DNA from: Mesotaenium endlicherianum
Lineage: Eukaryota
Direction of reading: 5' to 3'
DNA: 64,000 nt
Assembly (NCBI GenBank): GCA_009602735.1
Contig: WELA01002856.1
Location: 1-64,000, forward strand
Shown: positions 4,348 to 30,500 of the stretch, one piece after another
Layout of the letters: every line of letters begins with the position of its first letter
Numbering within the stretch: position 1 is the stretch's first letter
Notes under the pieces: generated by a model
Seen by the model: the letters and a program-made list of their open reading frames with translations, nothing else
Told to the model about the DNA's origin: nothing
The model's database searches: none
Made by a program: the position numbers and the translations under genes

Positions 4348-4561
4348 CACCCTTTAGGGTCACATTTAGCTGCATGTAATGTGCTGACAAAGCCGTCTTG
4401 AGACGCATAAGAAGAACGTAGTAGTGCGTATTCTGATGAACGTGCACCGGATTCTCTCATGATAGACCCGAGCTACAGAAGTCTTCACTTCTCGCCTCTC
4501 GATTGGGGACGAAGAGGAGAAACTGGTCAGTGCTCCTGTAATTCAAACATTTCGATCGGAA
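4348..4561. promoter_or_regulatory. Probable bidirectional promoter between ANP32 and the acyltransferase
   Basis: Only 214 bp separate two divergent start codons. Confidence 0.6.
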
Positions 4562-6942: not shown

Positions 6943-9012
6943 GTGGGCCCGGCTTCCCTCTCCACCCCACCCCATCCCACCCAGCACCCATGTCCTGCTA
7001 CCCCACTGCTTCCTCTGCAAACCTTCACTCGATCAGGTCGGTTGGCTGGCCTGCCTCTCTTTTTGGGCCTGCCTGCCTGCGTGTATGCCCGCCCTGCCTG
7101 TTTAGCTGGCACCCCCCCCATGCAGAAGGCATGCAAAGGGACCGCACATTCCAGAGGGCGCCTTGTCTGGTCCTACTCTCGAGGCCAGCTGGCTTGCTGT
7201 GGTTTGCCCTCCGGTGGTCTGGGCTGAGTGTGACACCCTGGCCCGCTGCCAGCCGTCAGGCATGTAGAGAGAGGCTGAAGAGGCTGACCAGGTGCCGCCC
7301 TCAGGCGATCGCACATGTGCTTGACTCTGGAGTAGATGACCTGATACTCCAGACTTTTTTGAAAAGGCTGAGTGGAAAAAATGTTCAGATTGAGAACAAT
7401 GCTGTAACTACAAAGAAATTAGATTTGACACAAGTAGCCAGCAGAAATACCAGCATATTCCACTTTCTTTTGATAGACTTGAAAACAAGCCGAAAACATT
7501 CTTTCAACTCCCAGTAAGGGGGCATCATGATCACATGTAGTACAATGAAATGTTGTTGAGTGAGTGCTGTTGTCAATACATTGTTGATTAAAGCTAGTCC
7601 AGTCAAGTTTGAAGCTCAGGAGGCAGTAGTAATATTTTGAGTAGTCTTCTGTGGTTGCAATTTTTGTGACAACCGACAAGGTGTAATGCTTAAGCTTTTA
7701 TACCATATGAAATAGCTCTTTAAGAGCTGACGAGTGCACCCCTTCATTCAACGACATGCTACCTACACGTATACGCTTGTCTAAGTGGCACAACGCTTGT
7801 ATATAGGCGTATGGTCTGCTCTACCAAATTTGGTCACACATATCAGACAAGCTTTTTTGGTTTTCAGCATCATACGAAAAACACAAAGAGGGACCTTCAG
7901 ATAGCAAGTCGGCAAACCTATTGTAAATTTGCGTGCAAATGAGCGACTTATCTTAGGCAATATAGGTGCAGCCTAGACAAGAAAGTTGATGTTTGCCCAC
8001 AGAAAGGACTGAGATCCGAACACACAGGCAACAAGGGACTATCTAACAACAACAGTAGCAGCAGGATTCACGTGTCATATTGCTGGCCCAATGGCACGAA
8101 GTGACTGTGTATCAAGCACGTGCTACTGAAGAGGCATCTGGGCAGCATCTGACCACGGCGCAGAATACAACAACAATAATCCACTGTCCTCCCGTCTCCT
8201 ATCCAGTTGTTACTTTCGAGCATACCCAGGGGCATACATATTACCCCCCGGAATATGCTTCTGTGGCTGCAATAGCCATATGAAAGACTCTCTCTCAAGC
8301 ACGATAAGCGGCTGTCTGGGTTAGCGCTTGACTTTTCAAAAGTCGAGAGTGAGCTCCAATACTAATCCTGGTTCATATGAGACGTGGAAATGATGGGCAG
8401 AAAGAACGGTGTGTAAATACCGAACGGCACACTCTCCCTTTGCCTGCCTTGCCTTGCCTATCACAAGGCTTCTACACGGTACTATCGAACTCAACTGTCC
8501 AGTTCTCCTACAACTTTCTGCATAGCAGGCTGCAATTGAACACATTCAGCTAGCTTCCGAGATTATCCTTTCATAACCATTCCACTCCCTTAGCGCTCAA
8601 CGACACTTAGGGCCAGTTTACAGTGGCCAAATCGATGCCGAGTTGATTGATTGAAAAGTACTTCGCTGTACCTTGAAGTACGTTTTCAAATTTAGCGCGA
8701 TGAAACTGGTGTCAAGGCGCGACGCGATTGATTGACGTTTGTGAAGAATTTGATTGAACTTCTGGTTTAAAAAAATCGACCTCGCCTTTTCAATTCTGCT
8801 CTCGAGCAGAATTGAAATTTTGGAATGTGTTCGACCCCTCGAATAACACCTCCTCGACGAGCACTCCATCGACAAGGATTGTCGGTATTAGGTAGGGGAA
8901 TCGAGTGAGGATGTACCCAATGACTACATTCTTTTTTTTGCTACCGATTTCGGTACGACGAGGAGTACAGAAAAAAATAATCGCAAGATGAACGATGCAC
9001 GATGTTAACATA

Positions 9013-10267
9013 TGTCCCGACTAATATCCATTTGACGGTGCCGCACGCGCAGCGCAAGCTACGGCCACCCAGGTACGGAAAGTCAATGTTGACTCACCGA
9101 CCACTTGACTGATTACGTCGCAGTCAGCGGTTATGTCGGCGTCAAGACCACTGGCAAGGGGTCAATGTCAATGTGCCCCACACCCAGGGATGGGGGAGGT
9201 TTTGACAGCATAGACAGCCGCGAGGCTAGAAGCTGGGGATCAATGATGAGCCGCCCAGCAGGTACCAAGTCAGGTACTGTGTGACTGGCAGATTAAACCA
9301 GGTCATGGCCGCATGCCAAGATAGGTTACGGCCGCCCGATTGGGAATCTTGAGCAAGTGGCATTTGCTTGTACACGCCGCTCATGAGTTCTTAGCCATGA
9401 GCCAATTAGGCGTGATTGCCAGCTGAGAAGCTAAGCAGCCACGCGCGACAGTCACGAGGTGTGCATGCATGCCGAGTGACTACGAGCTTGAGTTGAGCAT
9501 GGCTAGGCAGAAGCGACATGCAGCTAAGCTTTGCGACTAAGCACGGCATTCTCGAAAGATGACACTGTGTGGTGCCTGCGAAAGGCACGAATCTTGCCTG
9601 AGGCATGTCATTCACTCTCACGCACTTTTGCCAAGAAGCAGAAGGAGCAGAAGGAGCAGAAGGAAGGAGAAGAAGGGCGCAAAGAAGAAGAAGGAGTTCC
9701 CAAGGCCATTGGAGAGCCGAGGCCCCACGCTTCTGCCGACGCTGAAGATTCTTCTCAGTGTATTATAGATAAGTTAGGATTGTAGGAGTTCCCAAGAGGG
9801 AATCTCACTGTTGAAAGTAAGAAAACTGCAGAATAGAATCTGCTAGGAGATTAGCACAGATTCGGCCGAACGCCACAAGTGTGTGTGAAGCAGCCTTAAA
9901 TTGGTGAGTTGTGTGTTAGTTTCCAAGTTCTCAGAAGTCGCATTCGCATCTCGAAGAGAGAGGGTAGTATTGGCAAATGAAGCTCTCAGTGAAGAACTGA
10001 GTGAGCCTAGCCTGACAGTGAAGAGCTGTTAAGGTGCGGTGTTGAGTGAAGAGCTTGACCCAGGCCAGCATAGACGTGTAGTTTCAAAGTTTTGTAAGTT
10101 GTGACCTTGTGAAAGTTAAGCAAAAGCCTGAAGGGCGATTTTCTTTGAATCTGACATTGTATGTCAAGCTGCTTAGAGTGTGATTTCTGCAAACTACAAT
10201 TTGCTCGCCTGTGAACCCAAGAACCTTGAGGCATAAAGCCTATGTGGAAGTAAGAGACTTCCGTCCT
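9013..10267 (+). repeat. Family A repeat A1 (1255 bp)
   Basis: Colinear with 25987-27241, same length. Confidence 0.95.
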
Positions 10268-10281
10268 ACTTTTGAGAACTT
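10268..10281 (+). promoter_or_regulatory. Putative self-priming primer-binding site, complementary to 9925-9938
   Basis: ACTTTTGAGAACTT pairs 14/14 (one G.U) with AAGTTCTCAGAAGT. It lies immediately 3' of A1 and is conserved in copy 2. Confidence 0.65.
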
Positions 10282-11053
10282 CGGTTCTGTGGTTCAGGTG
10301 AATAGAAATTCCCAAGCAAATTGGGGATTGAGGCCTGTGCGGGCTGCCGGTGCTCACCCTGGAAGGGGACCCGAAGAAATTTGACTGTACATGCGGTTGA
10401 GGAGTCGAACACTCTACTACCCTGTGGAGCCTGCGGAAGGTTCTGATTCAAGCCAGAGTCCACGAGGAAGTGAGACATCTGAGTGCACGGATAACCTGTG
10501 GAGTGAGCAACCGTGTAGTGAAACAGATAGATAAAGTACTTAGTAAAACAGAATAGTTTATCTATTCAAGACAAGGATCTTTGAACACAAGTGGTAGCTT
10601 CTTGAAAGAGAGATGGCTTCTTGAAAGTTAATATATTTCTGGATTTTGGCAAGTACAAGAGTGATTCAGGAATGTCTTTCTATGTTCTAGCTCTTGTTTA
10701 TATACTTGCTACATAAGTAATTTCTAGGAAGGTGTATGTTGATGTGTTGGCACCCAACACATCCCAAAACTTGCCACCTCTTTCTAGAATAATGTACACA
10801 TGTCCTTTTGACCTAAAAATGGCACATCTGACTTTTGCCACATGGAGTTCTTCTAGGTCTTTCCTCTAACTTCGAAAATGCCTTGGAAGGTTCAAAGGAC
10901 ATGAACCAAGTTACTAGAGTACCTATTCACACTTGACTCCACACAATACTACTCCAAATATATTTGAAAACATTAAAATATATGCAAACTAATATATAAT
11001 AACTCAAATCACTACATCACCCCCCCGATAGAAAAAGCGACGTCTCGGCGCGT

Positions 11054-11182
11054 CAAGTCAGGTCTTACACATGTGGAGCAAACTAGTCAACAGTTTCAAG
11101 TCAGATGCCACACATGTGAAGAGGACTAGTCAAAGGCGCCAAGTCAGGTGCTACACATGTAAGGTAGACTAGGCAAGGTCGT
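11054..11182. repeat. Three degenerate ~43-bp tandem repeats in the 3' UTR of element B
   Basis: Unit CAAGTCAG....ACACATGT......ACTAG, three copies. Confidence 0.7.
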
Positions 11183-11785
11183 AGGTGGTGTGACCTTATT
11201 GGCTAGCCTACTCCTTAATGATAAAGAAAATTGTACAAGTTGGCCCAGAATCTGCCACGAACTCAAAAATTCATAGCGGCCACAGAACTGCTCCAAATCT
11301 GAAAATTCGAGTGCCAGACGGACCGCGTCGGAGAACTCTACCGGGTCACCAAATTTGAGAGCATTCTCATTTCTGGAGTGTCGTTGAGAGCTGAGAGAGT
11401 AGGCACTCCTCCAAATCTGTGCAGAAACTTCTGAAAATCATAAGTCCTTCTATACTTCTCCAAATTCTGCAAACTAAGTCTCAAACTGGGCGCTGTAAGA
11501 TGTTCTACCAGAGTCTTGAGTTTCAGAGCATTCCAAGTTCAGGGGAGGGCACAATGTCAGAAGGCATATTCTGCCCTAACAATGCCAGCAGCCTGACCCC
11601 CTTCTACTTAGAGCATCATATCTCTCTCACCAGTGCTCCAAATTGAGCAAACTTGGACTCTAAATGACCGGCTACTCATGGACTACAGCCAGGTAAATTT
11701 TCAGAATTTATTATGCAGAGACCTATTACCAGTAGCAGTTTTAGTTTTCTGTCCAGAAACTGCGAGAAGAGAAGAGTGTCTAATG

Positions 11786-14700
11786 TCAATTTTTCCTCTT
11801 TCTTGTTCTTGCAGGCTGCCTCCAAGGGGTCTTCTGCTGCTTCTTGATGGTGGCAGGCTGCCTCCCTGAAGTCTTCGGGCTTCTAGTAGAGAGACTTGGG
11901 GCTGGTCCAAGATGGGGGTTGGCGGCATGGAAGCGCTTCAACTTTCTCTGAACTTTGTCAAGGTAGTGCGCCGCCACCCAACTATTCTCCGAATCTGGAT
12001 ATCCTTTCCACTTGATCAAGTATTGCTGCTGTCTCCTGAAATTTCTCATAGCCACTATGTCTTCCACTTCGTACTCCAAATGATCATCCACTATTGTTGG
12101 GGCTGGTGGGGTTGTCACACGTCCTGGGAACTTGTTGTCGGGTTGCACATATGGCTTGAAGAGGGAAGCGTGGAATACGGGGTCGATGTGCATAGTCTGG
12201 GGAAGTTCTAGCTTGAAAGCAACGGGGTTGACTTGCTGGATAATCTTGAAGGGTCCCAAATACTTGGGAGAGAACTTGCTGCCGGCAGGCCTGTTGTTCA
12301 GGGAAATGTTCTTGGATGATAGTAACACGTTGTCACCCACTCTGTACGTAATTTCTCTTCTGGATCTGTTCGCCACTCTTGCTTGAGCATCTTGCGCGTG
12401 TTGTAGAGCTTTCTTCGCTGCTGTAAGGGCTGCTTCTAATGTCTCCATAAAATCTGTGGCTGCAGGTACTTCATCATGGCCAGCCGTGAAGCTCAGTGGC
12501 GTGGTCGGATGGAAGCCATAGTTGAGGAAGAATGGGGACTCTTGGGTAGAGGCCTGCGTAGTGTTGTTGTAGGCAAACTCGAGGGGGGTCAAGTACATGT
12601 CCCAGTCTTGCTCGAGGGTAGACACGTAGGCCTTTAGAGAGGTCTTTAGGGTACGATTCATACGCTCGGTTTGCCCATCTGATTGTGGGTGGTAGGCAGT
12701 AGACATATCCAGCGATGTACCCAAGTTCTTGAAGAGATTTTTCCAGAAATGGCTTGTGAATCTTGGATCTCTATCTGACACAATTCTTGATGGTAGTCCA
12801 TGGAGTCGGAAGATGTTGTCAAAGATGAGTCTTGCAAGTTGTGGTGCTGTAGCCTTAGTCGTCGTGGGAATAAAATGAGCCATCTTGGTAAGTCTGTCCA
12901 CCGCCGTGAGTATTGCATTATGGCCTCGAGGTGTCACGGGCAAGTCCACGATAAGGTCCATTGAGATGTCCGTCCATTGTCTTTCGGGGATTGGTAGTGG
13001 TTGGAGGAGTCCTCCCGCCTTTTGCGATGATGGCTTGATTCTTTGGCATGTGTCACAGCTCCTGCAGTACTCCTTGACTTGCTTAGACATGCCTGGCCAA
13101 CAATAAGTCCTAGCTAGAACGCCCGTGGTCCTTAGGATTCCAAAGTGTCCTCCAAGAGGGTTGTCGTGTGCTTCTCGTAGAAGCAAGAGCCGGAGGTCTA
13201 AGTCATTAGGAACACATCTCTGGCCCGTATCTTGCCTCACCCAATAATTGCCTTCTTGCTTCTTGCATGGGTCCAAGGCTGCTTCTCCGTTCTTGTAGTA
13301 AGGGTCTCTTTCATAGGCGGCTGAAAATCGAGCTTCCAGATCTGTCTTCAGGGATACCATCACTGCATTTAATTGCAGTCTTGAGAGGGGGTCAGCCGGG
13401 TTTGTCTTGCCGGGCTGGTACTGAATCGTGATGTTGTATTGTTGCAAGTATCCGCTCCATCTTGCTTGTCTCCTTGAGAGATACGGCTGCGTTTGGAGGT
13501 GCTTTAACGCCTCGTGGTCCGTGGTGACCAGTACTTTGCGTCCTTCAACGTAGCAGCGCCAAACCTTCAAGGCATGTACAATCGCCAATGCCTCTCGCTC
13601 CGTGGTTGTATAATTTTGCTCGGCTGGATTTAGCTTCCTTGACTCGTAGGCGATGGGCTGCAGTCCCTTGCCTTGGTCTTGAAGCAGGATTGCTCCTATT
13701 GCATAGGAAGATGCATCGGTGATGACGTGGAAGGGCCAATCTGGGTTTGGACTTGGGAGTGTGAGCACCGGGGATGTGGTCAATCTTCGCTTTAACTCTT
13801 GAAATGCCTCTTCCTCTTTCTCGGTCCATGTATATAGCCTGTCCTTCTTGAGTAGATCTGTCAGGGGGGCTGCTATGTGCGAGAAGCCTTGGATGAATTT
13901 TCTGTACCAATTGGCAAATCCCAAGAATGACTGGAGTTCTTTCTTGGTCGTGGGGGTTGGCCATTCCTCCACCACCGTGGTCTTCTTGGGGTCTATCTTG
14001 ATGCCATCAGCAGTCACGTGGAGACCTAGGAACTCCACTTCTTGTTTGGCAAACTCGCATTTTGACTCCTTCGCAAACAGCTTGTTTTGCTTCAATACTT
14101 CAAGGACTTCTTTCAAGTGTCTCGCATGCTCTTCAAGGGTCTTGCTGTAGATAAGGATGTCATCGATGAATACCACCACAAATCTGTCCAACATGGGCTG
14201 AAATATGGTGTTCATCATAGTCATGAAAGTTGCTGGCGCGTTGGTGAGTCCAAATGGCAGGACCATGAACTCAAAATGTCCATATCTTGTCCTGAATGCC
14301 GTCTTCTCTATGTCCGGTTCTGCGATGCGAATCTGGTGGTAGCCGCTCCGTAAGTCAATCTTCGTGAAGTACTTGGCTCCAACCAGCCGGTCCATGAGCT
14401 CATCCATGCGCGGCAGCGGGTATCGATTCTTGATGGTGATCTTGTTGAGGGCGCGATAGTCCACACACATCCTCAAGGTACCATCTTTCTTCTTGACAAA
14501 TAGCACCGGGGCTCCAAATGGCGACTTGCTAGGTCGAATGAAGCCATGCTCCAGTAGCTCCTTGATTTGCTTCTTGACTTCGTCTAGCTCCGTGTATGAC
14601 ATTTTGAACGTAGGCCGAGAGATGGGCTTGCTTCCGGGCTCCAACTCTATCTTGTGGTCTACGAATCTTTTGGGGGGTAGGCCCTTGGGCAATTCCGGGG

Positions 14701-15394
14701 AGAACACTTCTTTGTAGTCCTCTAAGACTTCTTGTATCTCCTTGGGAACGGGGCTGCCTTCTTGACTCTCGATGTCTTTCTTGATGTCTTTTGGCGTGAT
14801 CAAGGCCAAAAGAAGCTCGTGTCCCTTCCTCACAAGTCTCTTGAGTTGGAGGGCGGACAATAGTATCTCGTGTGCCGGCTTCTGGATGTCTTGGGTCTGG
14901 ATATTCTGGATTGCGCGCAAAATACAGATTCTTGAAGTGATGTCATTCTTGATCTTGATAGTACCGGTCCTCCAATCAACTTGGGGGTTGTGCTTGGTCA
15001 ACCAAGGCGTCCCTAGGATGACGTCGTACTTGCCCAATTGCATGGGGGAGAACACTACTCTATCCTTGAAGGACTTGATAGAGAGTGCCAAGGGGTACGT
15101 CTTCTTGGAAGGGGTAGTATAGGAGAATCCATCGGGCATCATAATCTCCTCGTCGTGGTCAAGAGTTCGCATAGTAATACCGTGCTTGGTGGCAAAATCT
15201 GCAGCAATGAAGTTGCCTTGAGCTCCGCTATCCACCAAGATGTGGACCTTCTCTCCTCCAAGGTAACCTCTCAAACTCATTGGGGCTGGAACGTCGTCTT
15301 CAACGGGGGTCTCCACCTCACTTGGCGTGTTGCCTTCTCGTGAAGTGGGTCTTGGGGTGGTAGGCTCCTGGCCTACCGGCGCTGTCCGTTTTTT
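11786..15394 (-). CDS. pol: Element B Pol: protease-RT-RNase H-integrase-chromodomain, entered by a -1 frameshift
   Basis: LVDSGA, FIDD, TDAS, HHCC (HDNPLGGH...CDTC), DDE core, GPF motif, chromodomain YEVEDIV...YLIKWKGY. No internal stops. Confidence 0.95.
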
Positions 15395-16653
15395 GACAAC
15401 TTTTTGGGGCATGAAAGTGCACGATGGCCCTTTTCCTTGCAATAAAAGCATAGTCCAGCCGTCATGAGAGCTTCTTTTTCAGCCGGGGAGAGTCTTGCTT
15501 TCACTCCTTGCTGGTTTCTTGCATCATAAGTGTCATTGGAGGGTCTTCCACTCTTCCGGGCAGCCGCGGGGTCCCTTTTAATAACTCCGATTTCCATGGG
15601 TGTGGGTCCAGATTCGGATGTGGAAGGGGCTGCGTACACCCGCGTCGTCGGTACCCGTGAAGATGAAGGCACGGAGTGCTTGAAATCCAAGGTATCCACC
15701 TTTTGGGCCACTTCAATGATCTTTGAGAAGTCCGTCAAGTCGCGTAACTCCACTTCCTTTGCCACCTTGGGTTTGAGGCCAAAGATGTAGCGGTCAATCT
15801 TCTCCTCGAGAGACATGTTGGGGATCTCAAGAGTGAGGGCGTGAAATCTGGATGTATACTCTTGAACGGACGTCGTTTGCTTGAGATGGTGGAGCTTTCC
15901 TCGGGCAATCTTCTCCGCATTGATGGGCATGAATTGCTTCTTGAGGGCCTCACGAAAATCTGCCCATCTTGCATATGATGGTGGGGGCTCTTGGCCGAGC
16001 ATGGGGTGCGCCATAGCTTGATATATAGCCGCTTGATAGTTACGCCACCATGATGTTGCTGCTCCTCTAAGTAAGGTAACGGCAAAGGGAACGTAGTCCT
16101 CCTCGGGTACTTCAAGGAATGCGAGGTACGTCTCCACTTGGTAGAGCCATAAATTCAGGTTGGCACCTTTCCCGGGGTTGAAAGTGTCGGGTTTGCCGGG
16201 CTTGATGAGTTTCCTTGCTCTCGTTGGCTCTTGTGGAGGCGCTTGAGCCGGGGCTGGATTTTGAGCATTGCTCGCAATAGGGGCAACCATGGCAGCCATA
16301 GCTTCTCTTGACGCTTGCACGGTTGCTTCATAGGTGGCCAAGCCCACTTGGTTGTGGACGGTCATTAGGAAGGCTGCCCACTCATTTGCGGGAACTCCTT
16401 GTGGTGGGGTCAACTTTGCTATAGCGGCTGCCACGGGATTTGACGGTGCTCCTCCTTGTGGTGCTTCTTGTTGTTGGAGATTTCCTTGAGTAGGCTCTCC
16501 CATCGACGCTGGAGGAGGGTGTGCTCCTCCTTGTGGTGCTTCTTGTTGTTGCAGATTTTCTTGAGTGGGCTCTCCCATCGGCGCTGGAGGAGGGTGTCTT
16601 GGAGAGGAAGGGCTTCCTTCGAAAGCTTGCTGTTGGTCTTGAGGATCGGCCAT
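15373..16653 (-). CDS. gag: Element B Gag (426 aa)
   Basis: Retrotransposon gag core ([25 protein letters not shown]), PTPMEIG motif and [14 protein letters not shown] knuckle. A 25-aa N-terminal duplication is present. Confidence 0.95.
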
Positions 16654-19600
16654 CTTCTTGTGCTACCAAAGTGCCTAGCTCCGATACCACTGTAGTGAAA
16701 CAGATAGATAAAGTACTTAGTAAAACAGAATACTTTATCTATTCAAGACAAGGATCTTTGAACACAAGTGGTAGCTTCTTGAAAGAGAGATGGCTTCTTG
16801 AAAGTTAATATATTTCTGGATTTTGGCAAGTACAAGAGTGATTCTGGAATGTCTTTCTATGTTCTAGCTCTTGTTTATATACTTGCTACATAAGTAATTT
16901 CTAGGAAGGTGTATGTTGATGTGTTGGCACCCAACACATCCCAAAACTTGCCACCTCTTTCTAGAATAATGTACACATGTCCTTTTGACCTAAAAATGGC
17001 ACATCTGACTTTTGCCACATGGAGTTCTTCTAGGTCTTTCCTCTAACTTCGAAAATGCCTTGAAAGGTTCAAAGGACATGAACCAAGTTACTAGAGTACC
17101 TATTCACACTTGACTCCACACCATACTACTTCAAATATATTTGAAAACATTAAAATATATGCAAACTAATGTATAATAACTCAAATCACTACAAACCGTC
17201 AGGAGACGAGTCTCGCCATATTGCCACGTACGGTGAGAATCCGTATGACGCGCAAGCCTTTGTACCCAATTTGGGCAGAGAGCACGACGTGTGGGGTAAA
17301 GTTAGTGAGTCTTGGTCACCATTCGAAATGACTGGTGATGATAAGGATGAAAATCCTAAGTTCAAGCTGTCTACAAAGTGTTTTAGTGGACAAACCGGTG
17401 AAAATAGTTTCACTGTCAAAGAGTTTGATGAGATCTATTGGGCTGATTTCTTTGAGAGAATTCGAAAGGATTCTTCTTACACTCAGTCAGTCCCTTTTAT
17501 AAGCTTGGTTCATTACTTGGACAAGGATGCCTTGTTGCTTTATCGCCAATTCCGGAAGGATGAGAACCTTACCCAGGAATGGGCGTTTGACAAGCAAAAG
17601 AAGGCGAGGGATTTAAAAATCCAGAAAGAGGCTGCAAAAGCCTGCTTGTCCGCTTTGTCATCAGGAAGAGCGAAACCTGCTGCACCTATTGAGAGCGTAG
17701 ACTTAGTTGCACTAACACAAGAATTAACAGATGCCATGAGGCAACTCACCGAGGGTCAGCAGCGAGCGGCTACTCGAGATGATGATGCTGGGTCTGTTGC
17801 AGAATTGCGTAAAGTGTGTGCAGAATTGTCTGAAAAGATTGCTAATGCTCAGGAACGAGTAACGCGCAGGGCTGCACCTTTTACAGGGCAGCATGGTGAT
17901 AGTGCCACCACGGAAGCAAGCCATGCGCAAGCGTTGGCTAGTTGCCGTAGGGATATGGAGGCTGGAGATGACCAGTTAGACTCTGAGCACTGTCTGCGTC
18001 GTTTTTTTAAGTTGCTTGAAGCAAAATTCCCAGAGGATTGCAGTCTTAAGATGCACCGTTATGTGCATTTTGTCCGTCAGAAGAACGAGAGAGTGATGGA
18101 GGTCAAATCCAGATTGGTAGACCTTGCCAAGAAGGCAGGAATCTATGAGCCTAGGATTGTGGCTGACAAATTCTTATTGTGTTTGGGTAAAGACACAGAT
18201 TGGGAGGTCAGGCCGCATCTATCTGCGAAACGCGGAATCGACTGGAACATCGACGAGGCTGCTGAAATAGCACGCAATGTCTAGGAAGGTAAAGTCTGGT
18301 ACAAGGAGGCTTCCAGGACGCTTATGGCTCCTGAGAAAAAGGAGGAATCTTTTCAACCTAAGGTCAATAGCTCTAATTTCCAGTTCAAGAAGAAGAGCGG
18401 GTCTTTCAATAGGTTTGCTAAGCACGCCAACACTGTTGAGACCGCAGAGGGCTGTTGGAATTGCGGGAAATGGGGACATCAGAAGAGAGATTGTCTGTAC
18501 CCGGATGCTAAGCAATTGTCTGCTAGCAAGGCGCAGGTATGCGCACATTGCAGCAAAAAGGGACACTCAGAAGATGAGTGTTGGTCCAAGAACCCAAATC
18601 TGAAGCCACCATGGGCTAATGCTGCCACGAAAGAGGCAGATAAGGGTAAGTAAAAGGAGAAATGTAACTCTGGTGACCGAAAGGGTAACCAAAAGTATGA
18701 TGCTATGAGTGCAGAGATTGCAGAGTTGAAAGCTCTATTCGCAAGACTAAATGTCCCCAATGTCTATTATGATGCAGATGTGGCCGAAAAGACCGTCTGC
18801 AAAGGCGAGAAGCTGACGCCTGAGAAGGCCGTGACTGCAACGGCTGCGGAGCGCGCAGATCATGACCGTCTGGTTCCAAGGAATGCTGGGAAGCTTCCTC
18901 AGACCTTTCGGATCACTCTCGATAAGAACGAGATTGCGCGGCTACGACAAGCCAAGCCTGGGCCACGCAAGACATTTAGTTTTTTGCTGGAGATAATGAA
19001 GGCTCTGGTGGAACACCGGATTCAGCACATTCCTTGTCTTTCACTCGCTGATCTGCGTCTTACGTACCCTTTCACGGTTGAAGAAGCCGGACAGCAGCTG
19101 GACATAGCTGAGGAAGGCGCGAACGGCGCTTCGCTGCCTACTAATTTCAGCACTGTGAGAGTGCAGAACAAGGATAGAGTTTTGACATTCAACGACTGGG
19201 CCGCTCCCAATATCCTATTGGACACTAGCGCACAGCCAGTAAACTTGGGAAAGCGAGCTGTGAAAGCTCTGGGATTGACGGCAAGGGACCTGAACGAAAG
19301 TCCTTTTCAGTTGAGGACTGCATCTGGGCAGATTTCAAAATCTGTGGAATTACCCGCAAGCTTGTGAAAATCACAGTAAACTTGGGGAAACCTGAGGAGG
19401 CGTCACTGCTCATAGAATGCACGGTGACAGAGGCAGAGAACTATGATGTCCTTCCGGGGACAGAAGCCCTGATTCCCCTGGGTATGGTCATCGACCTGCG
19501 GAAGCAGAGGGTGACTTACCAGTCGACAGATTGGCAGCCGATAGGAAAAAATCCTGTAAAAATGGTTTGCTCGGGAGAGGCAAACTACGGATTGCTAGAC

Positions 19601-19798
19601 TGTTGTGTGAATGACCGGTATCCAGACCATTATGACCTCATCATGCAACGCGAAGAGGAGGGCTACACCAGCGTCAACATGCTGACTTCTTTGGTTTGGC
19701 AACCTCGGATTATGGAGCAACTGGAAGCTGTGAGTAACAGGGACCGTGGCTTGCAAGAGCTGCTGCCAGTTCCCTATCCAATTAAGTCTGTTGCCAAA

Positions 19799-20530
19799 GT
19801 TGACTGGATCTTTGCGGGATTCCCTTGTCAACCTTTCTCGCAAGCTGGGAACAGGAGGGGATTCAATGACCTGCGAGCACAACACTCGGGATGGATGGTG
19901 AAAATCATCAGTATGCTGCGGGAACGCCAGCATCTCTACCCACCAGTGTTTGTGATTGAGAATGTACGTCCAGGGATGGATTACAACCAGATGAAGCCAG
20001 GAGATCCATGGCTGGTCTTCGACTCCACCCTGGGTCATCATGTATTGATCAACGACGCCAGGCACGGAGGAGTCTCACACCGGGCCAGACTATTCTGGAC
20101 CAACGGCATGTCCATTGAAGTCCTGAGGGAGATGGAGGAGATTACGCGGCGCTCACCAACAACAGTATCTGTGGGAGAAGCACTGATGGTGGAAACCAAG
20201 CCAGTGATCAGGAGGGATTCCTACCCACAGTACGTCGTCAACGAGCCAGGCCGGCCCAGGGTGGTGCTGCCCACCTTCACGGCATACCCAGGATTACGCG
20301 CATTCGTGAATGGAGGACCAGGTTTGGTTAAGAATGCGCACGACAGAGAAGCTCAGTGGAGAGAGCCGACAGCTGAAGAGAAGGGAAGGTGCCTGGGGGT
20401 ACCCAACTCCATTGCACAAGAAATTGTTGCGATGGTGGGACAGGACAACGCTGGGAAGATATTCGGCAATATGATTGGGCATCACTCCATGACGTGGTTG
20501 ATGGAGACGATTATGACTTGGCAGCAGATG
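19799..20530 (+). pseudogene. C5 cytosine DNA methyltransferase domain within the family A polyprotein (copy 1; motifs I-III deleted)
   Basis: Motif IV AGFPCQPFSQAG, motif VI VIENV, motif VIII HRARLFW, motif IX-like REPTAEEKGRCLGVP and motif X-like KIFGN, in canonical order. Confidence 0.9.
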
Positions 20531-22599
20531 ACATTCTCTGACAAGTCTATGCCCAGGCCGAGACCGGTAACGATTGGAGTCCATGTGGTGCCAAACTCTG
20601 ATCAGAGAGCTATCAGGGAAGCGCATCAGCGACAAGAAGAATATGGTGTTGAAAGGGACGCAGCTGAGGCTGACCAAGGTGAAGCACTCAGAGAAACCAG
20701 AGTGGCGGAGCTGACCAGGTGTCAAGACCTACTGGCGCGAATTGACAATCGGATGACGGCTCTACAAGACCCTCTGGAAAGAGAGCTGCAAAGGCTGCGC
20801 GAAGACGTAGCCATGGAAGACCAGGCAACTGGTGAAGCAAACCCTTTGGAGAGCGCTGCAGCAAGCAAATCACAGGAGATCCCATTATCTGCAGAACGCT
20901 CCAGCCAAATATTTGTGAGGATGCCGGAAGGGGAGGAAGAGACCACTTCTGAGTTACGGAACATGGCCCAAGACCATGTCTTCGGAAGCCCATCCCCAAA
21001 CGCGGCAACGTCAAGATATGAAGAACGCCAGTGCAATATTGGCGAATGGGCCGAAGAATGGTCAGAATTCAGGAAATTCTGGAGGGTCTGGAAAGACCAT
21101 TTGCCTGGAGGTGATCTTTGAAGAACGCAGGAAGGAGACGAACGAGAGATTGCGCGCCACACCTGTTCTGATGAGCCCAGAGCCAGAGGCCAAAGGGCAA
21201 CCACAAGACGCAGTTGGCAGCACAGCTGAGTCGATCACCAGGCAAATCATGGAGCAGTTGCTGGAAGCAGACGCCCTTCGACTCAGAGAAGAGAAAGTGG
21301 CGAAAGCAGCTCGCGCTCTACAGTCAGCCATCATCAACATGGGGAGGCTCAAAGCAGGAGGGGATGAAGAATCGCCGCCTCCTGGAACAGAGAAGCGGGA
21401 GGAGGGAGAGGATGCAGAGATGCAAGGCCTCCCAGAGTTTGAGTTGCCATCACTCAACAATAGAGGGGAAGCTAGAGAAGAAATTCCACGTTTTCCCACG
21501 CCACAGTTGGATCAGCTTGACTTGCAGGAGTTGAGGACAGACGACTGGGTTGCTGACCACCTGATGGGGCCAAGCCCGGCAGACCTTTATGAAGAACTAA
21601 GGTCACCAACATCCAGTACCCCTACTGCCAGTCTTTCAGTGGCAGAGCCCAAGTCAACCGCACGACCGCCGCAATGGCAGGAGGTGACTGCCTGCACTGC
21701 TAAAGTGGAGACAGCGCAAGGTAAGCCCAAGGGTCGCGCAAGCAGACCAAGGAAGGTGGCCCGTGAGGGTAACGCATCTTTTAGGAGGATGCTAAAGCGA
21801 TATTTCAAGCATAAGGGGAAGGCTCAGAGAGAGGGCGTTCCGCGAGGAACCACAACCCCACCTCCTCCTCCTCTGCGGGATATTGTGCAGAGAGAGGGAG
21901 AGGACGGCTTGATTCGCAGGGCAATGGCATTGGGCATTAGTGTGCCGCCAGGCATTAACACGCCCTTGTTGCAACTATCAGATCTTAGGATGTCGAGGCC
22001 GGAGGCACTTGCTCCCATGACACCTGCAATCCCAGAATGGGAACTGATGGATCTGAGAAACACCATGAGCCGCTTGACCGCAGCAGATGATGTTTTCCTC
22101 GCACAACTAGCGACATCTCAAAGGCCGCAAACGTTGGCGCAGGCATGGACGGTCACACCACCCGCAAGGGAGGAGTATGGCACGACCGTCGCCCGCATGG
22201 CTGTTATTGAGCGAGAGTGGGGCTGGGTAATCAGCCCTAGGACAGGTCCTGCAGGTTGGCCAGTGGCAAACCAACCTCGGCCACGTGAAGAAGGAGGAAC
22301 CGAGACCAGTTGGACTGCAGTCGACGAAGAAAAGTTCCTAAGGCAACCCATCCGGAGGCGCCTGACGTACACCTCACAACAGGAGAGGCGACGCGTCATT
22401 GGGAAAGGTAAAAAGCCTAGGAAGCAGGCTGCAGAGCCTATCGCAACGGAGGAGCAAGCTGCAAAGCTTGCTACTCCACCTCCTAAGAATCAAGCAGAAA
22501 AGCTCGAGAGCCAGAATCAGGCAGAAAGCCTGAGGGCCAGGATGAGGGCGAAAAGCCCCCACCTGCACCCAAGGAGTTGCAACTACTGGATGCCTTTGT

Positions 22600-25500
22600 T
22601 GGGGAGAAGCAACCTGAAACTGAGACTTTTGCCATTTGGGAAAATGGTCTCAGCCCAGCATAGAGCACAAGTAGAAAGGTTGCTGAAGAAACACCGCAAG
22701 GTGTTTGCTTTTACTAAGGAGGAGATTGGTAGAACCACTGCCAGTGTGTGTGAGTTCACACTAACTACTGATAACCCAGTCAGACTTGGGCCGCATAAGC
22801 TCACTCAGACAGAATGGGACTGTGTGGAGAAAACTAGCGAAGAGCTGCATAAGCTCCGCATGATTGAAAAATCTACCTCAGTGCATGGGGCTCCCACAGT
22901 AGTAGTCGCTAAAAAGGACGAGGCCGGCAATTACACTGCCACTCGTATGTGTGGAGATTACAGGCGACTGAATCTGTACACGGAGCCAGACAGCTATGTG
23001 ATGCCTACGTCGGAGCGGATCTTTGCAATTGCCACCACCGGGAAGGTGTTCAGCATCATCGATCTGCGCCAAGGCTTCAACCAAATCCCTGTGAAAACAG
23101 AAGATCAAGGTAAGACCGCTTTCTGGGCTCAAAGGGAACTTTGGCAATGGACAGTAATGCCATTTGGGCTGAAAAATGCCCCAGCCATATTTCAGAGGAC
23201 TATGGATAAAGTGCTGGAAGGGCTGGATTTTGCTAAGCCATACATTGACGATGTGGTAGTATTCAGCAAGTCCATAGAGGAGCACCTCGAGCACTTCGAA
23301 CAAGTGTTCCAGCGCCTGGAAAATTTCCAGATGAAGCTGCATCCTGGGAAGTGCAGATTCTTTGAGGCACACGTGCCTTACCTAGGACATGAGATTGGGA
23401 AAATGCTATGTCCCCTCAGGCTGAGAAGACTGAGGCTATTTACAAGATACTTGCACCTGCAAATGTGTCTAAGCTGAAAGCTCTGTTAGGGCTAAGCGGA
23501 TACTATCGTAAGTTTGTGACGGATTATAGCAGAATTGCTAAACCCCTGACGGAACTCCTGAAAAAGGATGTGCCTTTTGTGTGGACAGAAGCTCAGGAGA
23601 AAGCCATGAACGAGCTTAAGGAGCGACTGGTTACAGCCCCAGTCTTGCGAACGCCTGACTACTCCAAGCCGTTCAATCTGCACACTGACTGGAGTCGTGT
23701 AGGAATTGGCGCAGTGCTCACTCAGGCCGCAAGCCCTGGAGAGGAGTATGCCATTGCCTATGCCTCACGCTCTAACAATCGAGCGGAGAGCAACTACTCT
23801 TCCTACGAAGGAGAGCTGCTGGCAGTGGTTTGGGCAGTCACACACTTCAGAGAGTATCTGTGGAGAAGACCCTTCACGCTGATCACGGATCACTCACCAT
23901 TACTATGGCTGATGAAGAATGGAGACCTCACTGGTAAGTTGGCTCGCTGGGCTCTTAAGCTGCAAGAGTACCAAATGACGGTGGTGCACAGAGCAGGAGT
24001 GCTCAACAACGACGCCAATGGACTCAGCAAGAACCCAGACCCATCTTCAGACGACAGAACAGGAGCTCGAGACAACGAAGACCCGAGCAGCCCAGCAGAG
24101 TTGGTGGCCTGCCTAGCCAAAATGGCTGGAATGGTAGCATCAGGTTAAGTTGAGCCTCTACCCCTGTTCAGTCCGAAGATCTGGAAAGATCAAGCTACTA
24201 TGCACTGGCTGAAGACGGGAACTCACTTGGAAGTGCTATCAGTGAAGGAGAAGGACCAGGTAAGCCATCGAGCTAAATGGTTTTGCTGGAAACGCAACAA
24301 CCTCTTCAAAATTGAAGAAATTGGTCAGGAGAAGTTAGTGCCAGAACCGATCAGGAGACGAGCTCTTGTGCAGGAAATGCACGAGAACACTGGACACTAT
24401 GGTGTCAAAAAGACGTATAGTCTTTTGGAGCTGTCTTATTGGTGGAGGGGCATGAAGCAGCAGTGTGAAGATGTGATCAAGGCCTGCCAAAGCTGTGATC
24501 GCGTCAAGGCTGGTTTTACATAGCAACATCCACACTTGCAACCTTTGCCAATCATGGGCCTAGGCTACCGCTGGAGCTGCGATCTCGCAGGTGAGCTACC
24601 GCTGTCTAAGCGAGGTAACAAGTATATCATGGTCATGATTGAGCATTTCTCTAAGTGGATAGAGGTCGTGCCTCTGACTGCTAAGGAGAGTCTAGGGACC
24701 GCGGAAGCACTCCTCGATGGTGTGATTGTGCGTCATGGAGCTCCAGCAAAAGTGCTGACAGACCAAGGGTCTGAGTTCCAAGGGTCTTTTCAGAAACTCT
24801 TGGATAGATGCTTCATTGATCATCGCACTACGTCTAGAGATCATCCGCAAGCAGATGGTTTGGCAGAAAGGATGGTGCAAACCGTTAAGTCTGCTTTGCG
24901 CAAGTTTTGCCTTGAGCATGACAAGCGTGATTGGGATCTGGCCCTGCCATGGTTGGTTATGGGTTACAGATTTAGCAAGCAGGCTGCCTTGGGGAATTAC
25001 TCGCCATATCAGATACTGCTTGGCAGAAGTCCAGTAGTGCCCAGCAGCATCAAGCAGGAGATTGAACAGGTGAAAGTCCTGGACAGCCCTGATGAACCGC
25101 TAAAGGTGATGGTACGTCGTAAGGCGTTATTTGAGCGCATGATGCCGGCTGCGCTGGACAATCTGAAAATTGCGCAGAAAAGAGATACGCAGCGTTACGC
25201 CAGGACGCGAGACGGGAGCTACCGCCTGCAGATGACGCACATTCAAGAAGGAGACTTCGTCTACCGCAAGCCCCAGACCAAGACCACCATCGACACCAGT
25301 TCAAGTGCAGTGATCTTACGCGTGAAACATGCGTTTGACAATGGTGTGTTAGAACTGGAAGGTTCTGATGGTAAGACCATGAGAGACCTCGTGCAGAATT
25401 GCACGCTATGCCATTTGCCGAATATTGATCCTACGGTTAGGATTGCGCCCGAGGAATTGGTGCCAGCCACGCCTTGTGCCAGCTGCAAAGTGCTGGATGA

Positions 25501-25675
25501 TCAGGAAGCAATGGTAACTTGCGATAAGTGTGGTGCCCGTTGGCACACTTTCTGCATTGGCGAGGAAGAGATTATGGCAGGACGATGGGTATGTCCTGAC
25601 TGCCTTCCTAAAACCCCTAGCCGCAGGGTTGGAAATAGCTTTCAGCAGAAAAGGCAGGGACGCCTCAGCAGCTGA
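22600..25675 (+). pseudogene. pol: Family A RT-RNase H-integrase-PHD finger, with frameshifts and stops
   Basis: RMCGDYRRLN, MPFGLKNAP, YIDD; RNase H LHTDWS; HENTGH...CQSC; DDE core (CDLAG, TDQG, LAERMV). C4HC3 PHD finger at 25475-25603. Confidence 0.92.
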
Positions 25676-25685
25676 AAGGGAGGGG

Positions 25686-25984
25686 TATAAGAGGAATTAA
25701 GGCAAAGCAAATATTTTCAAAATTTTCTGCTAAGTCTTAGGATGAGCAGATGGTGAGAGCTGGGTGAAGGAGAACATTGCTCTGAGTGTTGGTCATGGTT
25801 GCATGGTGTCAGGAGCCCAGGGATGGGTCAACCTTGGTGAGGCTTGTCACCGACACACGTGCGAAGGTTGATCGACCATGTTGGCCCACACGTGAGGAGG
25901 GCCACCGACACATCGACCAGGTCGAAGGCACACGTGCGGGAAGGCTACGCACGTGCCGAGGGACCGACACTGTTAGGCACGACA
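25686..25984 (+). repeat. Family A repeat B1 (299 bp), directly after the PPT
   Basis: About 95% identical to 27242-27545 and ends GCACGACA. Confidence 0.95.
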
Positions 25985-25986
25985 GC

Positions 25987-27241
25987 TGTCGCAAGTACTA
26001 TCCGTTTGACGGTGCCGCACGCGCAGCGCAAGCTACGGCCACCCAGGTACGAAATGTCAACGTTGACTCACCGACCACTTGATTGATTACGTCGCAGTCA
26101 GCGGTTATGTCGGCGTCAAGACCACTGGCAAGGGGTCAATGTCGATGTGCCCCACACTCAGGGATGGGGGAGGTTTTGGCAGCATAGACAGCCGCGAGGC
26201 TGGAAGCTGGGAATCAGTGATGAGTCGTCCAGCAGGTACCAAGTCAGGAATTGTGTGACTGGCAGATTAAACCAGGTCATGGCCGCATGCCAAGATTGGT
26301 TACGGCCGCCCGGTTGGAAATCTTGAGCAAGTGGCATTTGATTGTACACGCCGCTCAGGAGTTCTTAGCCATGAGCCAATTAGGCGTGACTGCCAGCTGA
26401 GAAGCTAAGCAGCCACGCGCGACAGCCACTAGGTGTGCATGCAAGCGGAGTGACTACGAGCTTGAGTTGAGCATGGCTAGGCAGAAGCGACATGCAGCTA
26501 AGCTTTGTGACTAAGCACGGCATTCTCGAAAGATGACGCTGTGTGGTGCCTGCGAAAGGCACGAATCTTGCCTGAGGCATGTCATTCACTCTCACGCACT
26601 TTTGCCAAGAAGCAGAAGGAGCAGAAGGAGCAGAAGGAAGGAGAAGAAGGGCGCAAAGAAGAAGAAGGAGTTCCCAAGGCCATTGGAGAGCCGAGGCCCC
26701 ACGCTTCTGCCGACGCTGAAGATTCTTCTCAGTGTATTATAGATAAGTTAGGATTGTAGGAGTTCCCAAGAGGGAATCTCACTGTTGAAAGTAAGAAAAC
26801 TGCAGAATAGAATCTGCTAGGAGATTAGCACAGATTCGGCCGAACGCCACAAGTGTGTGTGAAGCAGCCTTAAAATGGTGAGTTGTGTGTTAGTTTCCAA
26901 GTTCTCAGAAGTCGCATTCGCATCTCGAAGAGAGAGAGTAGTATTGGCAAATAAAGCTCTCAGTGAAGAACTGAGTGAGCCTAGCCTGACAGTGAAGAGC
27001 TGTTAAGGCGCGGTGTTGAGTGAAGAGCTTGACCCAGGCCAGCATAGACGTGTAGTTTCAAAGTTTTGTAAGCTGTGACCTTGTGAAAGTTAAGCAAAAG
27101 CCTGAAGGGCGATTTTCTTTGAATCTGACGTTGTATGTCAAGCTGCTTAGAGTGTGATTTCTGCAAACTACAATTTGCTCGCCTGTGAACCCAAGAACCT
27201 TGAGGCATAAAGCCTATGTGGAAGTAAGAGACTTCCGTCCT
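25987..27241 (+). repeat. Family A repeat A2
   Basis: Direct repeat of 9013-10267. Confidence 0.95.
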
Positions 27242-27545
27242 TATGAGAGGAATTAAGGCAAGGCAAGTATTTTTAAAATCTTCTGCTAAGTCTTAGGATG
27301 AGCAGATGGTGAGAGCTGGGTGAAGGAGAACATTGCTCTGAGTGTTGGTCATGGTTGCATGGTGCAAGTTCAGGAGCCCAGGGATAGGTCAACCTTGGTA
27401 AGGCTTGTCACCGACACACGTGCAAAGGTCAATCGACCATGTTCGCCCACACGTGAGGAGGGCCACCGACACATCGATCGGGTCGAAGGCACACGTGCTG
27501 GAAGGCTACGCACGTGCCGAGGGACCGACACTGTTAGGCACGACA
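27242..27545 (+). repeat. Family A repeat B2 (terminal, 304 bp)
   Basis: Direct repeat of 25686-25984 with a 5-bp indel. Ends GACA. Confidence 0.95.
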
Positions 27546-30500
27546 TTGATTGAAGTTGGTAAAAACATTGATTTAACTTCGTGGTTTCAATCAATTGAAC
27601 TCGGATTTTCAAACCTGCTCTCGAGGTTTGAAATCCTGAGATGTATTTGAACTAGTTCTAATCCTCGAATGACCCCTCCTCGCCGATCACTCGATCGACA
27701 AGGACTGTTGGTATTAGGCAGGGGATTCAAATAAGGTTGTCCTCGTGGAGTACTTTCTGTTTTTTGGCAACGATTTCGGGACGGCAAGGAGTAGACGAAG
27801 CGCGACATCGTGTGGAGGGAATTTGACAACTCCGCTCAATCAATTTTGTGCCTGTGCACTGTCAACGCTGTTTTGTTTAGCTGTTTGAAACTTGGTCGTC
27901 TATTTTGTCTTCGTCGCTTCGATCTCGTAAAATTCCGCAATTCGCGTTGATCAATTGAGTGCCTGTGGCCACTGTAAACCGGGCCTTAGTGTATGTAAGT
28001 CTATCAAGGGACTCAAACAACGTCAGTCTCTGGTCGACCTTGTCAATCACTTCAACTCATATGTGCACATGTCTGCACATATCTGCACATGTGTCACGAC
28101 TGCCAACCACTGGACGGTGCCACACGCTCAACGCAAGTCACGGTCGACCAGGTACGGAAAGTCAGCATTGACTCATCGACCAAAGGACTGAGTTATCTCA
28201 GTCAGCGGTTATGTCAAAGTCGTTGTCACTGTCAAAGTGGTCACGACACGTCAAACCCCACACCCAGGGATGGATGGGGATTTGGACGAAGTAGTCAGCC
28301 GAAAAGCTAGAGGTCTGGAACCAGCAATGAGCCAGCCCAACAAGTGCCAAGAAAGGTGCTGACCAATTGGCTGCCTAAGCCAAGTACAGCGGGGTGTTGC
28401 AGAGGCGTCGTGTGCCACCTCGGCCAAGACCCTCAAGTGACTAGGCACGGCTTGAGCGTTCATCTCAAACGCTGCCAGCCGCCAGCCACATAGGCATGAT
28501 TGCCAGCTGAAAGGCTAAGCAGTCCCGCGCAACAGTCGCAAGGCATGCATGCATACTCGGTGACAACTTCAAACCTGTTTGAAGGCTGCTAGGTAAGGAC
28601 AGCATGCAAAGCTAAGCGCTGTGACTAAGCACTGGCTTTCTCGGGATGAAAGGGGGAAGGGTGCGAGGAGTGCGCCCATACACACTCACGCACCCTCACC
28701 CGCGAGTGGAAGCGTGCACGAGGACCTTTCCTAGTTGCATACACAAGGTGGAGTGGCCTGGTGGTATGCCACCCTTGCAAGAGTTAGAGGACTACATGAG
28801 AGAGGAGTGGAAGAGAACTCACTTTAATAAGAAAAGTCGTGTACAAGATAAGAAGGTTAGACTGACTAACTAGACTAGACTTCCTCCACTTCTTTTTGCT
28901 TCCCATTTATGCCTCAATTCTACGTGTCCTCTCTAGCAAAGTACCTCCAGAACCTTCTACTATGGCTCCTTCCATGTAGGCGACCTTGCCTAGTTAGACA
29001 AGCTAGCACACTCACACACACAATCACGTTCTAGAATATTCTACTACACAATCCACTAACTCCTCACGGAGTTTCTAAAATTTCCACAATCACTTTGGCA
29101 CTCTACGTAATCATACATAATTTCTGGAACCCTCATAATTCAATGTCTTACTTTCTGGACTCCAATCGAAATTTTCGTCACTGGACCTGTCCTTGTCACT
29201 AAATTGTGACTGTGACACTAAAAACTCACCAAAAACTCCCAAAATTCATAATTTTTTGAATACTTGTCCAATGACTTGAAATACAGGCCAAAGTTCTTCT
29301 AAAATCACACTGTATGCATATAAAATGCTAGAAAGATACAAACTACACTTTGATAACCTTACATCATCCCCCTCCTCAAGATGCGACGTCCTCGGTGCAT
29401 ACTAAGCATAAGTGACGTCATATGAGGAATCGAGCTCACATATACGCTAGATAACACACATACACATTTATTATACAAGTTGCAGGTCTTGAACAGGCTC
29501 CAGGATGATACTCATTACTCCAAACTTGCTCCACTTAGTGAAAGCTCCATCGCATACATTGGCTCCCCACATAGCGTCTCCTAACACAAGTGCATCTTCT
29601 CTTCAACTCCTTTGTCTTGGAATAGGCCAATATCTCCATAAGGGCTGTAACATACTCCCTCCATCATCTTCACATACTCCAAAGCTGGATCCAAGGCATA
29701 ATAGTCTGCCATATCGCCAAAATACTCATTCTTCGCCCCCTTGGACAAGTGGCAACTCTTCGTCACGCCATGTGGCTTACTGAAATGAATCAACTTACCA
29801 AATAGGCGATTAACAATTAATAAATATCTTTATATCAGCAAGTAATCTTTATGGTAATTTCCGTTAACTGGTTAAACGGCAAATGACAACACACTAGCAG
29901 TGAATAATACTCGTAAGTCAAATGCGAGTAAACTAGCATCAATAATGCAAATCAGTAAACTCATACATAAGCAAGGTTAGAAGACAGTGCATATCAATGG
30001 TTTCTCGCCTTGGATTCAGATCGCTCTCAGTAAGCTGTACAAGAGAGTTGGCCTCGTTTCCGAATGCCAAACTCGAGAGCAATGCCTAGCATATGTACAT
30101 GGAATGAGTTGACTGTTCAACGGTCAGTGCCATGGCACCGCCTACCCGGGAGTTAACCACGCTGGTAGGACCTCGGTTAACCAAATCCACCGCCATCTCC
30201 CATCATCCCGAATCGCCATCCATCATAGGGATGTCATGTGGCCATTCATCTAGCATACCACACTTAGATGCATATCGAGGCAGTTCGCTGCTACCGAGTA
30301 CGGAAGTCAGCTGGCTGTCAAAGAATGTGTCAGCAAGCTGACTTAAGCTGACACCAGCCTGCTACTTCCGGCTGAGTCATTAAACTGATATTAAATATAA
30401 AGTCCAGCAGACTGACCATTAACTAGAGTTCAGCAGGCTGAACTTATTTCACTATATTATTTAAATGAATATCATATCAACCAATATACTGATTCATTAC

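Follow-up and report, generated by a model that had tools for sequence, protein, structure and literature searches.

Insertion ends at a palindrome inside the long terminal repeat of a Gypsy element from Mesotaenium endlicherianum suggest internal cutting by integrase

The window analysed here is a stretch of 64,000 nucleotides, positions 1-64,000 of the forward strand of contig WELA01002856.1 (assembly GCA_009602735.1) from Mesotaenium endlicherianum. At 9013-27545 it holds a Ty3/Gypsy retrotransposon (copy 1) whose repeats are split in the order A-internal region-B-A-B, and which starts and stops at the two halves of a palindrome lying inside the long terminal repeat (LTR). We argue that the element's integrase very probably cuts this palindrome, and that the DNA it cuts is probably a circle in which the two cDNA ends have already been joined.

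Both pairs of repeats were delimited by comparing the window with itself. The left repeat A1 (9013-10267, + strand) starts with TGTC, would hold most of U3, R and U5, and is 97.05% identical to A2 (25987-27241, +) with 0 gaps. B1 (25686-25984, +), the first part of the LTR as reverse transcription would define it, and B2 (27242-27545, +), the right end of the element, both stop at GACA and are 93.75% identical, with 14 substitutions in 299 nt and one 5-nt indel. All four A/B repeat boundaries are sharp: A1 is followed by ACTTTTGAG and A2 by TATGAG, giving GTCCT/TATGAG at the A2/B2 joint, where the two cDNA ends would have met. The GC between B1 and A2 completes the palindrome GACA-GC-TGTC (25981-25990, unstranded), the putative integrase attachment site, which occurs once in the window and is kept in relatives. 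A polypurine tract (PPT; 25674-25685, +) adjoins the start of B1. Adjoining A1 is the primer-binding site (10268-10281, +), which pairs with 9925-9938 (+) inside A with one G-U; the pairing is also present in A2 (26899) and in a diverged copy 2 (61514), and TTAAAT lies at 9896-9901, about 25 nt before the pairing partner. These 14 nt after A1 point to self-priming, with 9925-9938 as predicted self-primer near a transcription start in the middle of A, from which it would follow that the LTR made by reverse transcription is B+A. To read A+B as the true LTR can be ruled out, as B is never part of the left end and the PPT comes ahead of B1. An original prediction, made from the letters of the window, had already proposed the order A1-internal region-PPT-B1-GC-A2-B2, the PPT and primer site adjoining the start of B and the end of A, an LTR of B+A, the palindrome at 25981-25990 and the GTCCT/TATGAG joint, and on all of these it was right.

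The coding region is that of a Gypsy element. A Pfam scan covered 37 of the 48 listed open reading frames (ORFs) of the window, the other 11 being ORFs of 60-98 aa in repeats or in a flanking transposon. It identified a gag with a zinc knuckle (zf-CCHC, E=5e-4) and a weak aspartic protease match (gag-asp_proteas, E=0.009, below the cut-off) at 17194-19367 (+, in-frame stops), an ORF with a C5 cytosine methyltransferase domain at 19229-21121 (+; PF00145, E=1.4e-12) that is found in most relatives too, a frameshifted reverse transcriptase (RT) and RNase H at 20919-24148 (+; RVT_1, E=5e-30; RT_RNaseH, E=1e-37), and a DDE integrase at 24149-25675 (+, one in-frame stop), made up of an H2C2 finger, the rve core and a C-terminal PHD finger. 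Chance matches to DUF7220 and a conotoxin were below the cut-off and were dismissed. A nested chromovirus (10514-17193, -) of about 6.7 kb, with 503-bp LTRs 98.8% identical by self-comparison and a target-site duplication (TSD) AACCG, interrupts gag. The catalytic D, D and E of the integrase are all present, with 35 residues from the last D to E, and the order protease-RT-RNase H-integrase is that of Ty3/Gypsy, the protease match being the weak one given above. The HHCC finger, the D,D(35)E motif, the primer site after the 5' repeat and the PPT before the 3' repeat are further hallmarks of Ty3/Gypsy; the exception is that the ends of the LTR as made by reverse transcription are not the ends of the insertion. 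No tyrosine recombinase was found in the 37 ORFs scanned. The domain scan agrees with the claim of an integrase-encoding Gypsy element, made in a prediction that mentioned neither the methyltransferase nor the nested chromovirus. With a PHD finger in place of a chromodomain and an RT on a branch separate from the window chromoviruses, the element does not fit the chromoviruses (Tcn1, Chlamyvir). Its frames are interrupted by stops and frameshifts, and it is a decayed member of a PHD-integrase Gypsy clade.

Copy 1 has had a complicated history. It lacks a TSD (left flank ...ACATA, right flank TTGAT...), and the differences between A1 and A2 are clustered, with 31 in the first 552 nt, 5 of them within the first 18 nt, against 6 in the last 703 nt (P=7e-7). 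The divergence of B1 and B2 agrees with the higher of these two rates. The element sits in a miniature inverted-repeat transposable element (MITE), which we take to be PIF/Harbinger-like from its TTA target and its terminal inverted repeat (TIR) of GGGCC type. The left part of the MITE (8610-9012, unstranded) begins with a TIR after the TTA at 8607-8609, matching the right TIR at 18 of 20 positions, and the right part lies at 27546-27985 (unstranded); TTA stands on both outer sides, and contigs of run X8 have loose ends at 8605 and 27986. A MITE core of about 250 bp is found on both sides of copy 1 (27536-27793 is 73% like 8715-8967), and a motif of this MITE recurs in the last 10 nt of B2. 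Contigs of four runs, mapped on 8500-28400, showed the element family at high depth and the MITE ends. The simplest reading would be an older insertion in which part of A was later converted and the flank rearranged. A copy without TSD, with a mosaic A1 and a rearranged flank cannot by itself locate the point of integration, and relatives were therefore needed. Copy 2 (28092-64000, +; by self-comparison 68-81% identical to copy 1) consists of A from TGTC, primer site, gag and methyltransferase before it leaves the window. It does start with TGTC at 28092, as had been claimed; its A was said to run directly into gag, but a nested insertion (28647-61142, about 32.5 kb) with a 5-bp TSD, CGGGA, interrupts it first.

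At E<=1e-20 the integrase-PHD protein matched 108 homologs longer than itself; RT and PHD occur in many of these and a methyltransferase in some, and the named ones belong to Calypogeia, Closterium and Pseudoscourfieldia. A scan of viral contigs for relatives of the element gave no match. We examined 87 related loci, the best 80 of 554 metagenome loci plus 7 genome-bin loci. Near-family repeats or adjacent internal ends were matched by 57 of them and 28 were handled as distant; the remaining two (L033, L047) stop within the integrase and were left out of the counts. After removal of duplicate insertions, 8 of them among the right ends, and of contigs that end before or inside B1 (L001, L010, L015, L025, L029, L032, L057, L076), the near family offered 41 distinct right ends and 16 distinct left ends. 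A midpoint-rooted RT tree, built without a DIRS, Copia or Bel outgroup or REXdb references, placed the window element and the palindrome-bearing loci on one side, and the window chromoviruses and fish Gypsy proteins apart from them (SH-aLRT 97). The palindrome label in this tree includes A-int-B copies (int, the internal region), whose site shows only as two terminal halves, and the largest near family groups with the Calypogeia protein. Loci L081-L087 are eukaryotic retrotransposon contigs within prokaryotic GTDB genome bins, likely through binning contamination.

The relatives share the unusual layout and its ends. Self-comparison gave A-int-B-A-B in six loci (L014, L027, L031, L037, L044, L051), and the 41 right ends comprised 21 of the form B-A-B, 19 with B only and one (L016) with B-A and no final B. 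On the left, B was upstream in none of the 16 (local scores 5-10 against 23 for a true B), and 14 of 16 start with TGTC. Of the 39 right ends that could be compared at a fixed position, 33 stop at ACA; in 3 of the remaining 6, GACA stands one sub-repeat further back. Among 14 two-ended copies a 4-bp TSD was exact in 7 and within one mismatch in 11; cross pairs gave backgrounds of 1/182 and 11/182 respectively, and there was no excess of 3-, 5- or 6-bp TSDs in the same 14 copies. The form B-A-int-B-A was absent from the related loci mapped for A and B. The forms foreseen, A-int-B-A-B and A-int-B and never B-A-int-B-A, are thus those of the related loci; the further claim that insertions end at TGTC and GACA between TSDs is supported in the relatives, where the TSD is 4 bp, and failed for the TSD-less window copy. 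Circular contigs (L065, L078, L081) were rejected as evidence of circles, since collapse of repeats during assembly accounts for them.

A precise site and a ragged joint are found side by side in these copies. At the B/A site the halves are separated by exactly 2 nt in 22 of 22 related copies (GC 8, AC 7, GT 5, AT 2), each spacer being GC or what deamination makes of it. The idea that the GC spacer is unusually mutable was rejected, as CHG sites in general (CAG and CTG) decay at 0.40-0.47. The start of B after the PPT is unaltered in 19 of 21 copies, the A/int boundary is AAT/T in 11 of 14, and the self-priming complementarity downstream of a TATA box is retained in 12 of 14. The A/B joint, by comparison, is ragged in 13 of 19 copies: 6 are blunt, 6 share AT and 7 have other small losses or gains, one with an extra G resembling a PPT remnant. 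On a tree built from the neighbouring 1 kb, copies with like joints or like 3' forms do not group together (21 changes against 19.3 when shuffled). In L082, which belongs to another family, B1 and B2 are the same over 106 nt, but 1-2 nt at the start of B1 are missing from B2. The A-pair and B-pair divergences are equal in all 5 full copies. B2 and the A/B joint are thus likely to be made anew at each insertion, and in the related loci the joint behaves as the fresh end-joining scar that had been proposed. The palindrome also reaches deep: the exact 10-mer GACAGCTGTC occurs 11 times in the 28 distant loci, whose integrases are 40-51% identical, against 0.2 over 200 shuffles, the 11 representing about 8 independent elements (one element accounts for three of the loci, and two others are close to each other). 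It lies mostly 55-110 nt past a G-run. The site was absent from 16 of the 28, many of which are contigs that end shortly after the integrase.

We consider it very probable that integrase cleaves at the internal palindrome, because the ends are CA, exactly 2 nt are lost, the TSD is a fixed 4 bp of unrelated sequence, the DDE triad is present and no recombinase was found. It is also probable, if less assured, that a circle comes first, the cDNA ends being joined before the DDE integrase cuts the left-hand palindrome. Judging from the positions of PPT and primer site, LTR-type reverse transcription, self-primed after A and plus-primed before B, would yield a linear B-att-A-int-B-att-A (att, the attachment site). 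Host end-joining or a last template jump of the RT would then join the cDNA ends into a circle with two LTRs (2-LTR circle), which the ragged A/B joints suggest, and integrase would nick after CA on both strands of one palindrome, with loss of the 2-nt GC overhangs. The product would be A-int-B-att-A-B between 4-bp TSDs, the form present in the relatives, in which the left palindrome is the site used. Copies of the form A-int-B could come from 1-LTR circles, from cutting of both sites or from later recombination between B1 and B2. Ragged ends of reverse transcription would end up in the scar and would not be transcribed into the next generation. A likely origin is that the LTR once captured a perfect circle junction, an event that would free the element from the need for clean ends of reverse transcription.

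A 2-LTR circle contains two identical palindromes, and free opening of either would therefore predict A-B-A-int-B as often as A-int-B-A-B. No A-B-A end was found among the 16 left ends, whereas 21 of the 41 right ends are B-A-B (Fisher P=1.5e-4), so the left site is chosen. The 2-LTR circle first proposed accordingly keeps its predicted ends, forms, TSDs and scar in the relatives and loses the free choice of site. In every family for which both lengths are at hand, B is shorter than A, which always puts the left site closer to the cDNA end or joint: the left palindrome would lie one short B (8-300 bp) away and, in the standard scheme of reverse transcription, become double-stranded first, and the right palindrome is separated from the cDNA end by the long A. 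Nearness and early completion of the left site are the likely rule of selection. Joining before cutting is favoured because B is only 8 bp in Gypsy-7a of Chlamydomonas reinhardtii. We lean, with some reserve, towards an old group of integrase-bearing LTR elements spanning the green lineage, Gypsy-7a included, with an obligatory 2-LTR-circle precursor, an encoded U5-GC-U3 junction, left-only opening and ragged ends discarded in a scar that is not passed on.

The same ends, TSD and ragged joint would result without any circle if integrase cut the left palindrome of linear cDNA and inserted both halves, host repair then connecting, within the chromosome, the end of A and the start of B that were left free. 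Such a course would explain the choice of the left site by its nearness to a free end, and loss of the small piece could account for the right end without B in L016. We regard it as unlikely: an intasome has a footprint of about 16 bp, and the 8-bp B of Gypsy-7a probably offers too little DNA to be gripped as an end of its own; right ends without B are, besides, only 1 in 41. Still less do we favour an RT that extends the right end by a head-to-tail jump onto the left end of a cDNA, often another molecule, with integrase excising A-int-B-A-B from the concatemer at two palindromes. Half of the non-blunt joints do use a shared 2-nt AT, the joint with the extra G suits such a jump, and B1 and B2 of the window differ more than the 3' part of A1 and A2 (14/299 against 6/703). 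However, the matching A-pair and B-pair divergences, 5 of 5, and the identity of B1 and B2 in L082 look like products of one molecule, the loci mapped contain no tandem multimers, and a jump alone does not exclude A-B-A-int-B.

Replication as in PAT or Ngaro, with an RNA from A1 to B2, a circle joint templated by B1/A2 and a tyrosine recombinase acting in trans, would explain the same repeat order (PMC5890265, legends of Figs. 1e and 4c), and the match of the last 10 nt of B2 to the MITE motif would suit it. It seems very improbable given a PPT adjoining B1, a TATA box and self-primer in the middle of A, an A/B joint whose form does not follow descent on the tree, TSDs that are 4 bp long and unrelated in sequence, and no recombinase among the 37 ORFs scanned. 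That an ordinary LTR element was rearranged just once, or wrongly assembled, to give the layout of the window copy is scarcely credible. The missing TSD, the mosaic A1 and the MITE core duplicated in the flanks would agree with it, but 21 distinct insertions of relatives, L082 and curated entries for Chlamydomonas all have this layout and palindrome, and B1 and B2 differ by their 14 substitutions and indel. For the family this reading is refuted, as is the alternative raised at the outset that B2 is an assembly artefact; a later rearrangement of the window copy's flank is likely and leaves the layout unexplained.

Several observations weigh against internal cutting of a joined circle as we propose it. 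No circle, cleavage or cDNA end has been observed, and the rule for the left site is a supposition. The window copy has neither a TSD nor a uniform A1; the run-contig tables, dominated by the nested chromovirus, showed no termini of other copies from its own organism. Among the relatives, 3 of the 14 two-ended copies lack a TSD, and the right end of L016 (3510-3985) stops at the end of A with no B2, which could be the loss of a small piece or an insertion at the joint. These relatives are old (LTR divergence of about 10%), and part of the raggedness of the joint may be decay. The joint tree is star-like, with 5 of 35 branches well supported, which makes for a weak test of clustering.

The layout itself is known. 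KnitGypsy-Dnmt3 of Klebsormidium nitens has DIRS-type repeats with Gypsy domains according to the Fig. 4c legend of de Mendoza et al. 2018 (PMC5890265), and by that description resembles our element in its Gypsy domains, its cytosine methyltransferase in Pol and its repeat order; the architecture, for which the original prediction had left a prior description in doubt, is thus already described, and the legend for Gypsy-7a also has it, with no mechanism. Unlike the present analysis, the account of KnitGypsy-Dnmt3 in the legends and text at hand (PMC5890265) gives no termini, palindrome, TSD, priming or mechanism; our sequence searches brought up no named K. nitens sequence. For the Gypsy families of Chlamydomonas our comparison is based on the library entries and legend of Craig et al. 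(PMC9940879), which treat them as ordinary LTR/I pairs and propose no mechanism; the supplementary repeat library was covered at places 9-58 of 158 'Gypsy' matches, parts 282 and 293. There a TGT repeat follows internal parts closing with CA-GC in Gypsy-2a/b, -3, -6, -7a/b/c and -8a/b, the internal parts of Gypsy-1 and -4 close with a plain PPT, Gypsy-14a ends B-GC-A-B as read by eye, and several consensus entries have the palindrome about 55 nt past a G-run. Gypsy-7a_cRei made 86 new insertions in strain CC-4532, with no solo LTR reported in the text at hand (PMC9940879). Its left LTR lacks the final 8 bp, so that it reads, like the window element, as A-int-B-GC-A-B with an 8-bp B; unlike the window element, its legend lists PHD between RNase H and integrase and no methyltransferase, and its right arm is TGTG. 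Its primer site is presumably of the tRNA type.

PAT, TOC1, Ngaro and SymbioDIRS share with our element the order A-int-B-A-B and a likely circular intermediate, and differ from it in that ours has a DDE integrase, PPT and primer site, a 4-bp TSD, CA ends and no recombinase. In vitro, HIV-1 integrase cleaves the palindrome formed at a 2-LTR junction (PMC1905944), and HIV 2-LTR circles are described as able to feed integration (PMC4372172). As there, a staggered internal cut of a palindrome of two att halves would give integrable ends; the retroviral case is a side route at the joint of the cDNA ends, whereas the palindrome of our element is encoded inside the LTR and is apparently the only route. 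Self-priming Gypsy elements such as Tf1/Sushi and Tcn1 likewise have a primer site complementary to sequence inside the LTR (PMC6317226), but they have ordinary LTR ends and chromodomains, and the RT of our element stands apart from the window chromoviruses. We found no paper on the palindrome, TSD or polarity, in a coverage that theses, Repbase Reports and most subscription papers lay beyond. The layout is thus known but unexplained, and new here are a putative attachment site, a rule for the choice of the left site and a connection with an active element of Chlamydomonas.

Circles of DDE-integrase retroelements are generally viewed as dead ends or a minor reserve, according to PMC4372172. 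If our interpretation is true, a clade in which every insertion ends inside the LTR would be a natural counter-example, and a model for internal, restriction-like cutting by integrase, in an element that joins LTR-type reverse transcription with a DIRS-type repeat order. Annotation pipelines that demand two full LTRs, TG...CA and a TSD (as described in PMC6317226) are likely to miss or mis-split such elements. A family transposing in laboratory strains of Chlamydomonas appears to share the design, and whether circles are true precursors of integration can be tested with existing strains because Gypsy-7a, with its 8-bp B, is active there.

Further features of the window and of the related loci deserve record. 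The methyltransferase lies before RT in the window (19229-21121 and 62741-63900) and near family, and between RNase H and integrase in another subclade; the loci listed for its placement are L036, L043, L059 and L062. It was rejected as a requirement for the layout: it sits at varying places in the element, L078, L084 and L085 (possibly truncated) gave no match for it, and the Gypsy-7a legend (PMC9940879) does not list it. Copy 2 retains an N-terminal methyltransferase motif region (62741-63900) that copy 1 has apparently lost. Copy 2 starts about 100 bp from the right end of the MITE, and the left flanks of both copies end in a similar TGCAC..ATGT..ACAT motif; the proximity of both to the MITE possibly reflects target preference or recombination between two insertions. 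The young chromovirus at 10514-17193 has open gag and pol, and contigs of run X8 show several GT..AG skips in it, as if spliced. The insertion in copy 2 (28647-61142) is a stack of nested chromovirus-type LTR elements with an intact-looking 1182-aa pol at 55905-59453, and two related elements in it carry an extra ORF past the integrase region (30644-32257, -; 52172-53212, +). The host gene at 3424-4353 (-), one open frame with leucine-rich repeats and a long acidic tail, is one that we take to be ANP32-like.

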